Part shown: positions 51,306 to 51,662 of the stretch, piece after piece
Layout of the letters: the number at the start of each line of letters is the position of its first letter
Position numbering within the stretch: position 1 is the stretch's first letter
From: Candidatus Latescibacterota bacterium
GTDB lineage: Bacteria > Latescibacterota > UBA2968 > UBA8231
Assembly: GCA_965208105.1 (NCBI GenBank)
Contig: OZ242318.1
Span: forward strand, 3,744,001 to 3,808,000
Reading direction: 5' to 3'
DNA: 64,000 nt
The notes under the pieces: model-generated
Seen by the model: only the letters and a program-made list of their open reading frames with translations
Databases searched by the model: none
Told to the model about the DNA's origin: nothing
Translations under genes and position numbers: made by a program

Positions 51306-51343
51306 AAAAAACCCGCCGTCGGCGCGGGGCTCGACAGCGGGTT
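51306..51343 (-). terminator. Attenuator terminator 2 (aspS leader)
   Basis: AACCCGCTGTCG-10 nt-CGACGGCGGGTT followed by a T-run, 28 nt before the aspS ATG. Confidence 0.85.
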
Positions 51344-51363
51344 GGGGTGAGGGTGCATTCTGA

Positions 51364-51456
51364 TCACGGCCAACGCCATCGAGCCCGGATGGCGGGGTTA
51401 TTGTTGCTGTCGCTATTGGAAAAGGCGTGTGCCGCGTGCTTGTGCCGTGATGTCAT
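51364..51456 (-). CDS. Leader peptide 2: [30 protein letters not shown]
   Basis: [14 protein letters not shown] cluster; 3' part complementary to the 5' arm of terminator 2. Confidence 0.78.
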
Positions 51457-51468
51457 TTCAAAATCTCC

Positions 51469-51509
51469 AAAAACAAAAACCCGCCGCGATGCGTGTTCGC
51501 GACGGGTTT
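51469..51509 (-). terminator. Attenuator terminator 1 (aspS leader)
   Basis: AAACCCGTCGCGA-7 nt-TCGCGGCGGGTTT followed by TTGTTTTT. Confidence 0.85.
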
Positions 51510-51539
51510 GGGATTTTCAGATTCGCTCGGAGTCAGTCG

Positions 51540-51626
51540 TCAGAACACGCGCAGTGGGGCCAGCGGATTATTATTGCCGGAATTGGCCTGGTTGTTGCAG
51601 GTGCGGTCTTTCTGACGGGTAAGCAT
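51540..51626 (-). CDS. Leader peptide 1: MLTRQKDRTCNNQANSGNNNPLAPLRVF
   Basis: 6 Asn in 28 aa; GCGTGTTC (51543-51550) complementary to GAACACGC within terminator 1. Confidence 0.78.
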   Translation of the reverse strand: MLTRQKDRTCNNQANSGNNNPLAPLRVF

Positions 51627-51634
51627 GATGGACA

Positions 51635-51662
51635 AAGATAGCGCCCCGCCGAAATCTGTCAA
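51635..51662 (-). promoter_or_regulatory. Sigma70 promoter of the aspS leader
   Basis: TTGACA-16 nt-TATCTT, 8 nt before the leader 1 ATG. Confidence 0.65.

Follow-up and report, generated by a model that had tools for sequence, protein, structure and literature searches.

Two predicted asparagine-codon attenuators in series upstream of an accessory aspartyl-tRNA synthetase gene in a Latescibacterota bacterium

Why would a gene for an aspartyl-tRNA synthetase (AspRS) be preceded by two short reading frames that are rich in codons for asparagine? This question is raised by a locus on the minus strand of the DNA analysed here, a stretch of 64,000 nucleotides from contig OZ242318.1 of a Candidatus Latescibacterota bacterium (the window), in which one promoter, two leader open reading frames (ORFs) and two terminators lie in front of a gene that we call aspS2. 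The best explanation, and one that we consider likely to hold as a whole, is that the leaders are serial Asn attenuators inducing an AspRS that charges tRNA-Asn. That they are working Asn-responsive attenuators, taken on its own, seems highly probable from the sequence evidence.

In the mechanism that we propose, two complete ribosome-mediated transcription attenuators would stand in series between a single promoter and the accessory gene aspS2. Each module would consist of a cluster of Asn codons, with Asp codons interspersed, about 10 codons before a stop codon that lies inside an RNA segment referred to as segment 2. With ample Asn-tRNA(Asn), the translating ribosome would reach the stop codon and cover segment 2, the intrinsic terminator would form and transcription would end. 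When Asn-tRNA(Asn) is scarce, the ribosome would stall at the Asn cluster, leaving segment 2 free to pair with the terminator's 5' arm, and RNA polymerase would continue. Transcription of aspS2 would require passing both terminators, and two modules could make the response steeper. Leader 1 would probably be read from a leaderless mRNA, and leader 2 from its own Shine-Dalgarno sequence (SD). The gene product, AspRS2, would be a non-discriminating enzyme that charges tRNA(Asn) with Asp, and the switch could then act as feedback control of the tRNA-dependent synthesis of Asn-tRNA and asparagine in a genome lacking asparagine synthetase.

The leader region of aspS2

The predicted sigma-70-like promoter (51635-51662, minus strand, as are all elements of the locus) has a -35 box TTGACA at 51662-51657, a 16-nucleotide spacer and a -10 box TATCTT at 51640-51635. 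It is the sole promoter-like site in the 1.3 kb between 50900 and 52200, where 0.2 would be expected by chance, and its -35 box, its -10 box and the 8-nucleotide distance to the ATG of leader 1 are kept in four relatives. No SD precedes leader 1 and, since only 8 nucleotides separate the -10 box from the ATG, its mRNA is probably leaderless or nearly so. Leader ORF 1 (51540-51626) has 28 codons and a TGA stop, and includes six Asn codons (51596-51591, 51584-51582 and 51575-51567). The 5' part of the ORF forms segment 1, the protector (51598-51617), whose nucleotides are almost invariant among relatives and which in folds without a ribosome pairs with segment 2. Segment 2 (51538-51550), the 5' strand of the antiterminator, covers the final codons and the TGA of leader 1; here GCGTGTTC(t)GACG at 51550-51538 pairs with CGTC(gc)GAACACGC at 51504-51491, a strand drawn from the loop and 5' arm of terminator 1. 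This terminator (51469-51509) is a 9-bp G+C-rich hairpin (51509-51477; -21.4 kcal/mol) with its 5' arm at 51506-51498, its loop at 51497-51489 and its 3' arm at 51488-51480, followed by the U-tract TTTTTGTTTTT.

The second module begins directly after terminator 1 with an SD, GGAG (51468-51465), and extends through leader ORF 2 (SD and ORF together 51364-51468). The ATG lies 8 nucleotides past the GGAG, and the ORF (51456-51364) has 30 codons, among them four Asn codons (51417-51415 and 51405-51397) and one Asp codon (51411-51409), and ends Pro-TGA. A 7-bp hairpin of the protector (1:2) type occupies 51374-51394, with arms at 51394-51388 and 51380-51374, and within it the stretch 51386-51374 doubles as the 5' strand of the antiterminator. 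All 13 positions of that strand find a partner in 51339-51327, in two cases through G-U, and the pairing overlaps the 5' arm of terminator 2 (51306-51341), a 10-12-bp hairpin of -23.8 kcal/mol with arms at 51341-51332 and 51321-51312 and a run of six U at 51311-51306. The gene aspS2 (49499-51277) follows, with the SD GGAGG at 51287-51283 and its ATG at 51277. Both leader ORFs end within the segment that is able to pair with the 5' arm of their own terminator. The order along the minus strand that an earlier note on this DNA had read from the letters, from promoter through leader 1, terminator 1, ribosome-binding site with leader 2, and terminator 2 to aspS, was recovered in full; the two leader peptides and both complementary pairs matched exactly, and the protector hairpin described for leader 2 is present.

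The combination found here is rare in its genome. Short frames with three consecutive Asn codons occur 15 times in the whole 4.85-Mb genome, and only two of the 15 have a perfect-stem terminator within 130 nucleotides downstream; these two are the leaders described above. Against a background of 2.4%, Asn makes up six of the 28 codons of leader 1 (P = 4e-5) and four of the 30 codons of leader 2 (P = 5e-3). No Asn-rich leader was seen when the regions before this genome's asnS and housekeeping aspS were inspected. By the criteria that can be applied to sequence, the locus is a member of the leader-peptide attenuator class, with a short ORF, clustered cognate codons, an intrinsic terminator, and an antiterminator whose masking is set by the placement of the stop codon.

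Conservation of the leaders and of the predicted switch

The leaders were surveyed at 34 aspS2 loci, two of which have no upstream sequence, leaving 32 usable loci from eight genera. A test for Asn-rich short ORFs, defined as at least three Asn in six codons within 700 nucleotides upstream of the gene, was passed by 31 of these, and the remaining locus (L103) has a homologous leader with three Asn in 20 codons. An Asn-rich leader and a terminator precede aspS2 at all 32 loci, while only two of 76 control loci from other phyla passed the test and neither of the two is leader-like. In 44 distinct leader sequences Asn accounts for 205 of 1122 codons (18.3%, versus 2.4% in the genome's long ORFs), an enrichment of approximately 8-fold, and the rarer codon AAT is over-used (120 AAT to 99 AAC, versus a ratio of roughly 1:2 in long ORFs). 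The earlier note had named a comparison of upstream regions among relatives as a place where its interpretation could fail, if Asn codons and pairings proved not to be conserved; across the 32 loci and eight genera both are conserved.

Orthologous leaders interchange AAT and AAC, and the indels in their variable part come in multiples of three, while the frame, the ATG and the stop are kept. Homologous leader ORFs of module 1 were found at 27 loci and those of module 2 at 20. The last Asn codon stands 9-10 codons ahead of the stop in all 27 leaders of module 1 and 11-12 codons ahead of it in all 20 of module 2, a distance that is held even in divergent lineages. Such a fixed geometry (47 of 47 leaders) is what a mechanism based on the footprint of a ribosome requires. 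The divergent lineages (L114, L117, L119 and genus g15) have quite different peptides in which Asn clusters are found again. In 40 of the 47 leaders an Asp codon is found no more than eight codons away from the last Asn.

These observations bear on the possibility that the hairpins are simply intrinsic terminators or genes for small RNAs, that the short ORFs are untranslated, and that any regulation is exerted through a protein or a small RNA. Leader 1 does lack an SD, and an RNA function alone could account for how strongly the nucleotides of module 1 are conserved. When the region 50800-52300 was searched against Rfam 15 with E values up to 10, nothing reached the gathering threshold, no leader, T-box or riboswitch family being found, and the best match, a weak one covering 51465-51592, was to the small RNA CrfA (22.9 bits, E = 0.16, where the gathering threshold is 38 bits). 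However, in their variable part the leaders keep a frame, an ATG, a stop position and Asn codons through synonymous exchanges and triplet indels, the Asn-to-stop spacing is constant, Asn clusters are found again in very divergent peptides, and the elements accompany aspS2 irrespective of the gene on their upstream side. We therefore regard this possibility as very unlikely.

It is also conceivable that the ribosome stalls because of the nascent peptide or the termination context (Asn-Asn-Pro or Pro-TGA) and that the leaders sense translation capacity, for example the activity of EF-P or of release factors. Of 27 module-1 leaders, 24 have a Pro codon immediately after the last Asn codon, as have 14 of 20 module-2 leaders (in the window at 51567-51563 and 51399-51394), and 15 module-2 peptides have the same Trp- and Arg-rich tail with Pro before the TGA. 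A precedent for a proline-codon-rich sensor ORF exists in mgtP of the Salmonella mgtCBR leader, according to the report on that system (PMC3641672). The conserved C-terminal peptide is encoded by the very segments that pair in the RNA, and structure thus explains its conservation; divergent lineages that have neither of the Pro features nonetheless keep the Asn clusters and the spacing. Of the explanations considered here we find this the least probable, and by a wide measure improbable. The Pro codon behind the last Asn codon and the Pro-TGA ending that leader 2 has in the crown group may tune stalling or release, or may be a mere reflection of RNA pairing.

The predicted RNA structures are conserved along with the leaders. 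The fold of the 343-nucleotide leader region has z = -3.3, and none of 100 shuffled sequences folds as well. Terminator hairpins of -16 to -29 kcal/mol with a U-tract are found in 48 of 48 modules, the tract of L120 being interrupted. In the alignments, pairing in terminators and antiterminators is kept in 90-98% of cells, versus 10-71% in controls in which a strand was slid. For module 2 (20 sequences), 96.5% of terminator cells are paired, with two pairs changed on both sides, and 90.3% of antiterminator cells are paired versus 36-53% with the partner slid. For module 1 (28 sequences), the share of paired antiterminator cells is 95.8%, versus 10-54% in the slid controls, and the helix contains two compensatory pairs. 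In L119 a perfect 12-bp antiterminator is formed by a different stretch of the leader.

In order to model the switch, transcripts were folded after being cut just before the 3' arm of the terminator. In 19 of 20 module-2 and 18 of 28 module-1 sequences cut in this way, the fold of minimum energy is the antiterminator. Module 1 of the window, in which a 30-nucleotide ribosome footprint was masked as well, folds into the protector hairpin when the ribosome is absent, into the antiterminator when the ribosome is set at Asn codon 12 or 20 (6 of the 9 bases of the arm are then paired), and into neither structure when it is placed at the stop (0 of 9). Folding with and without a ribosome had been proposed in the earlier note; module 1 behaves in these folds as the model needs, and module 2 departs from it in that its antiterminator forms without a ribosome. 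The broader suggestion of that note, that the locus follows the attenuation logic of trp, his and pheST, is supported in silico by the conservation at all 32 loci, by the helices that remain paired relative to slid controls, and by the masked folds of module 1.

Several results count against the attenuator model or reduce the weight of the evidence for it. The module-1 terminator (98.4% of cells paired in 28 sequences) is almost invariant and for this reason offers no covariation, and as the module-1 helices in general are almost invariant, covariation support for them is thin. The compared genomes are kin, so that the shuffle controls overstate significance, and more weight belongs to the slid controls and to the divergent lineages. 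In 10 of 28 module-1 sequences the cut transcript prefers the competing 1:2 (protector) pairing. In module 2 of the window the antiterminator forms at equilibrium unless the ribosome is at the stop, even when there is no ribosome at all, and an off state would therefore need either translation to the stop or kinetics in which the 7-bp hairpin forms first. On completed transcripts the terminator always wins at equilibrium, whatever the position of the ribosome mask, an outcome that is as expected for a kinetic switch. Finally, Asp enrichment over the leaders as a whole was looked for and none was seen (5.2% versus a background of 5.7%); it is only in their position beside the Asn cluster that the Asp codons stand out.

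The element and the gene occur together. A core motif of module 1 was found once per genome in 20 of 76 genomes of the family; it lies directly upstream of aspS2 in 19 of these and at a contig end in one, and it was found in 0 of 42 family genomes without aspS2. A search for the motif in species representatives of 185,579 prokaryotes returned only 19 records, all from the same metagenome-assembled genomes. The gene upstream of the element varies among the loci, which indicates that the element belongs to aspS2. Three of the genomes that carry the attenuator (loci L132, L133 and L136, equal to G126, G159 and G118) are titled Gemmatimonadota, Gemmatimonadaceae or Gemmatimonadetes and were grouped in the window's Latescibacterota family, so that their labels conflict.

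Both modules are present at 16 of the 32 loci, module 1 only at 12 and a module-2-like element only at four, and the tandem state is dispensable, as half of the loci have one module. The loss of a module seems to be under way in L107 (G130), which is counted among the 16 loci with both modules and where, approximately 350-200 nucleotides upstream of aspS2, module 1 is decaying next to an intact module 2: its ATG is lost, it has an in-frame TAG and a mismatch in the terminator stem, and its promoter region has been replaced. Module 2 of L119, the deepest two-module lineage, the single module of the module-2-only genus g15, and the module 2 of the crown group have a common peptide tail, stop context and terminator core. 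On this ground the tandem pair is probably ancestral to the aspS2 clade and single modules probably arose by repeated loss. Two types of deletion can be recognized, one (L088) in which the flank downstream of terminator 2 is retained, and another (L090) in which the SD of leader 2 is joined to the ATG of aspS2. The window's sister genome, whose AspRS2 is 89% identical, carries one module, from which it seems that each module works alone. Judged from its distribution, the tandem is kept in several lineages and is not obligatory.

At two loci of genus g15 (L115:2-1414 and L116:2-1414) the reading frame of the upstream lysS continues through the Asn-rich stretch to the stop of the leader, and aspS2 starts at 1501. 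Since the match to the LysRS profile (508 bits) extends no further than residue 425 of 470, the leader appears to be the 45-residue C-terminal tail of LysRS. In L120 a one-base difference makes this stretch an ORF of its own, beginning with the Met of the FPM motif, and L118 has a stand-alone 24-codon leader after a different gene.

An accessory AspRS and the route to asparagine

The product of aspS2 is a full-length bacterial-type AspRS of 592 amino acids (NF001750, 802 bits). The earlier note had the target right in so far as the gene encodes an AspRS; it is not the cell's housekeeping aspS but a second copy. The housekeeping gene lies at genome position 3949582, about 155 kb away, encodes 595 amino acids, and has an ordinary promoter region with no leader. 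A housekeeping-type aspS was found in almost every one of 168 Latescibacterota genomes, and its product shares 42-47% identity with the AspRS2 of the window. The aspS2 type (61-100% identity) was found in 34 of the 168, all from one family and from eight of its 18 genera, and the loci closest to aspS2 are titled Candidatus Latescibacterota. The best matches outside the phylum have approximately 60% identity and are mostly alphaproteobacterial. In the tree the aspS2 type forms one clade (support 99), with the housekeeping copy outside it on a long branch. By these comparisons the regulated gene is an accessory paralogue and not the housekeeping aspS, and it was probably acquired from outside the phylum. 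Two genomes without aspS2 (G133 and G167) each have two housekeeping-type matches listed, with best E values of about 1e-153 and 1e-143, which may represent a different duplication of aspS.

The gene content of the genome suggests what an additional AspRS might do. GlnRS (707 bits), AsnRS (477 bits), GatA and GatB are encoded. No asparagine synthetase B scored above the cut-off (best 56 bits versus 267), and a search for AsnA found none. An AsnA-like candidate among the class-II synthetase paralogues was examined and is EpmA. The presence of GlnRS leaves GatCAB without an evident job besides the amidation of Asp-tRNA(Asn). The single tRNA-Asn of the genome carries U1-A72, a base pair that bacterial GatCAB needs in tRNA-Asn, according to a paper on the subject (PMC4206432). 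In Thermus thermophilus and Deinococcus radiodurans an additional AspRS together with GatCAB is the sole route to asparagine, as stated in two reports (PMC4206432, PMC2330236). As far as gene content can tell, the genotype found here is the Thermus/Deinococcus genotype for tRNA-dependent Asn synthesis.

Comparative evidence on AspRS2 itself points in the same direction. In cultured alphaproteobacteria that carry the nearest outside homologues of aspS2, asnS is absent in five of five, so that the AspRS of these bacteria must serve tRNA-Asn. Genes similar to asnB occur in nine of 34 genomes with aspS2 versus 29 of 42 family genomes without it, and in the largest genus in one of 21 versus four of 10; these counts were taken by hand from two tables and come from kin genomes that are not independent. 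Asp-tRNA(Asn) would be the useful product of AspRS2 under Asn shortage, which fits the control of aspS2 by Asn codons. We consider it rather probable, on these indications, that AspRS2 charges tRNA-Asn.

Other findings argue against so special a role for AspRS2. Nine genomes that bear aspS2 also have asnB-like genes. In the family as a whole gatB is present in 73 of 76 genomes, glnS in 72 and AsnRS in 69, with or without aspS2, and for this reason the housekeeping AspRS is probably non-discriminating too, which would make AspRS2 an inducible supplement and not the sole route. In the AspRS of Pseudomonas aeruginosa, His31 and Gly83 of the anticodon-binding domain reportedly favour the recognition of tRNA-Asn. 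AspRS2 has the His, in RDHGG, and a Thr at the second site, while the housekeeping copy has the His and also the Gly, in RPEG. These specificity residues do not separate the two paralogues.

It could be, then, that the attenuators are real and that AspRS2 is an ordinary discriminating AspRS or a stress isozyme, in which case the Asn codons would report how well the cell is supplied with nitrogen or amino acids in general or, read jointly with the Asp codons, a shortage of the Asp family, rather than a need for Asp-tRNA(Asn). This would agree with the presence of both non-discriminating-type residues in the housekeeping enzyme and of only the first in AspRS2, with the family-wide occurrence of GatCAB, GlnRS and AsnRS in genomes without aspS2, where the tRNA-dependent route does not need AspRS2, and with the proximity of Asp codons to the last Asn codon in most leaders. 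However, an attenuator of a discriminating AspRS should use Asp codons, and it is Asn and not Asp that is enriched in the leaders. The nearest outside relatives of AspRS2, moreover, serve genomes without AsnRS, and aspS2 tends to occur where asnB is missing. We consider a discriminating AspRS2 unlikely and prefer the explanation in which AspRS2 supplies Asp-tRNA(Asn) on demand.

A more far-reaching version of this explanation is put forward only tentatively, as an idea that may well prove wrong. The acquired bacterial-type AspRS would be the committed, feedback-regulated enzyme of the route; its leaders would be the first known Asn(/Asp)-codon attenuators and an ancestral, steep tandem with two checkpoints; and in genus g15 the tail of lysS would have been captured as a leader for the next gene.

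The genes on either side of aspS2 are poorly characterised. Upstream, at 51833-53560 on the minus strand, lies a 575-amino-acid ORF with only a weak match to a GHL10 glycosyl-hydrolase-like family (29 bits), and downstream, at 48178-49467 on the same strand, a 429-amino-acid ORF with no match in Pfam or NCBIfam. A promoter-like sequence, TTGACG-17-TAAGAT, is found directly after the aspS2 stop. Elsewhere in the window are a tmRNA gene at 6736-7093 (plus strand; tag ANSDYALAA) and a tRNA-Pro(TGG) gene at 62999-63076 (plus strand). Among public sequencing runs, those that partly match the region mostly bear sponge, coral-reef or marine metagenome labels, with small shares that give no evidence of habitat, and no RNA run covering the region was listed.

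Relation to known attenuators and to known routes to asparagine

The regulation and metabolic integration of the indirect tRNA-dependent routes to Asn-tRNA were named as an open question in the Outlook section of a review of the field (PMC2330236). For one lineage the present locus offers a concrete and testable answer, in which a ribosome reading Asn codons would decide on the synthesis of an extra AspRS. If this is true, asparagine joins the amino acids that are sensed through leader-peptide attenuation, leader-peptide attenuation is extended to the uncultured phylum Latescibacterota, and a natural case is provided of two same-signal leader-peptide attenuators in series. As sister genomes carry one or the other module, a ready comparison exists for the effect of the tandem, and the small size and self-contained nature of the elements allow tests in E. 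coli reporters.

Leader-peptide transcription attenuators are known from the enterobacterial trp, his, thr, leu, ilv, pheA and pheST operons. The modules described here resemble those of trp, his and pheST in having a promoter-proximal short ORF with clustered cognate codons, a stop within segment 2, mutually exclusive antiterminator and terminator, and a protector (1:2) pairing; as in pheST, the gene that would be regulated encodes an aminoacyl-tRNA synthetase. They differ from the enterobacterial attenuators in their Asn codons with interspersed Asp, in the presence of two complete serial modules, in a first module that is probably leaderless, and in belonging to an uncultured phylum. In the literature searched, no Asn-codon attenuator was described. 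The extra aspS and gatCAB genes of Clostridium acetobutylicum are said to be under T-box control, with the charging of tRNA-Asn as the signal. That signal would be the same as here; it is read by a T-box RNA in Clostridium, by this account, and would be read by a translating ribosome in the system that we propose.

The earlier note knew of no serial pair of leader-peptide attenuators, and on this point it has to be corrected. The Salmonella mgtCBR leader contains two ORFs, mgtM and mgtP, that sense different signals, ATP and proline-charged tRNA, and the authors of the report on it call it a singular example (PMC3641672). There, as we propose for the present locus, two short ORFs lie in one leader, each acts in an attenuation-like manner, and both control the same downstream genes. 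Unlike the mgtCBR ORFs, both modules of the present locus have a codon cluster of the same kind and their own canonical intrinsic terminators, and look like diverged duplicates. In mycobacteria, leaderless polycysteine short ORFs act as cysteine-responsive attenuators, according to a preprint (bioRxiv 10.1101/834739). Leader 1 resembles these in being a (probably) leaderless short ORF with a run of codons for one amino acid that would control downstream genes. The amino acid and the phylum are different, and the present locus has a canonical terminator/antiterminator pair and a second module led by an SD.

With regard to the enzyme, the closest comparison is with Thermus thermophilus and Deinococcus radiodurans, which, according to the two reports already cited (PMC4206432, PMC2330236), have GlnRS, AsnRS, GatCAB and a second AspRS and lack AsnA and AsnB, and in which the extra AspRS is tied to Asn supply, as we suppose it to be here. 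The second AspRS of those organisms is archaeal-type, unlike AspRS2, which is bacterial-type with the full 592-amino-acid architecture, and the housekeeping AspRS of the window's family, in contrast to theirs, may also be non-discriminating. The class of mechanism to which the aspS2 leader is assigned is itself a known one. What is new here is the amino acid, asparagine, the target, an accessory AspRS apparently tied to tRNA-dependent Asn synthesis, the arrangement of two serial modules predicted to respond to the same signal, and the phylum in which they are found.

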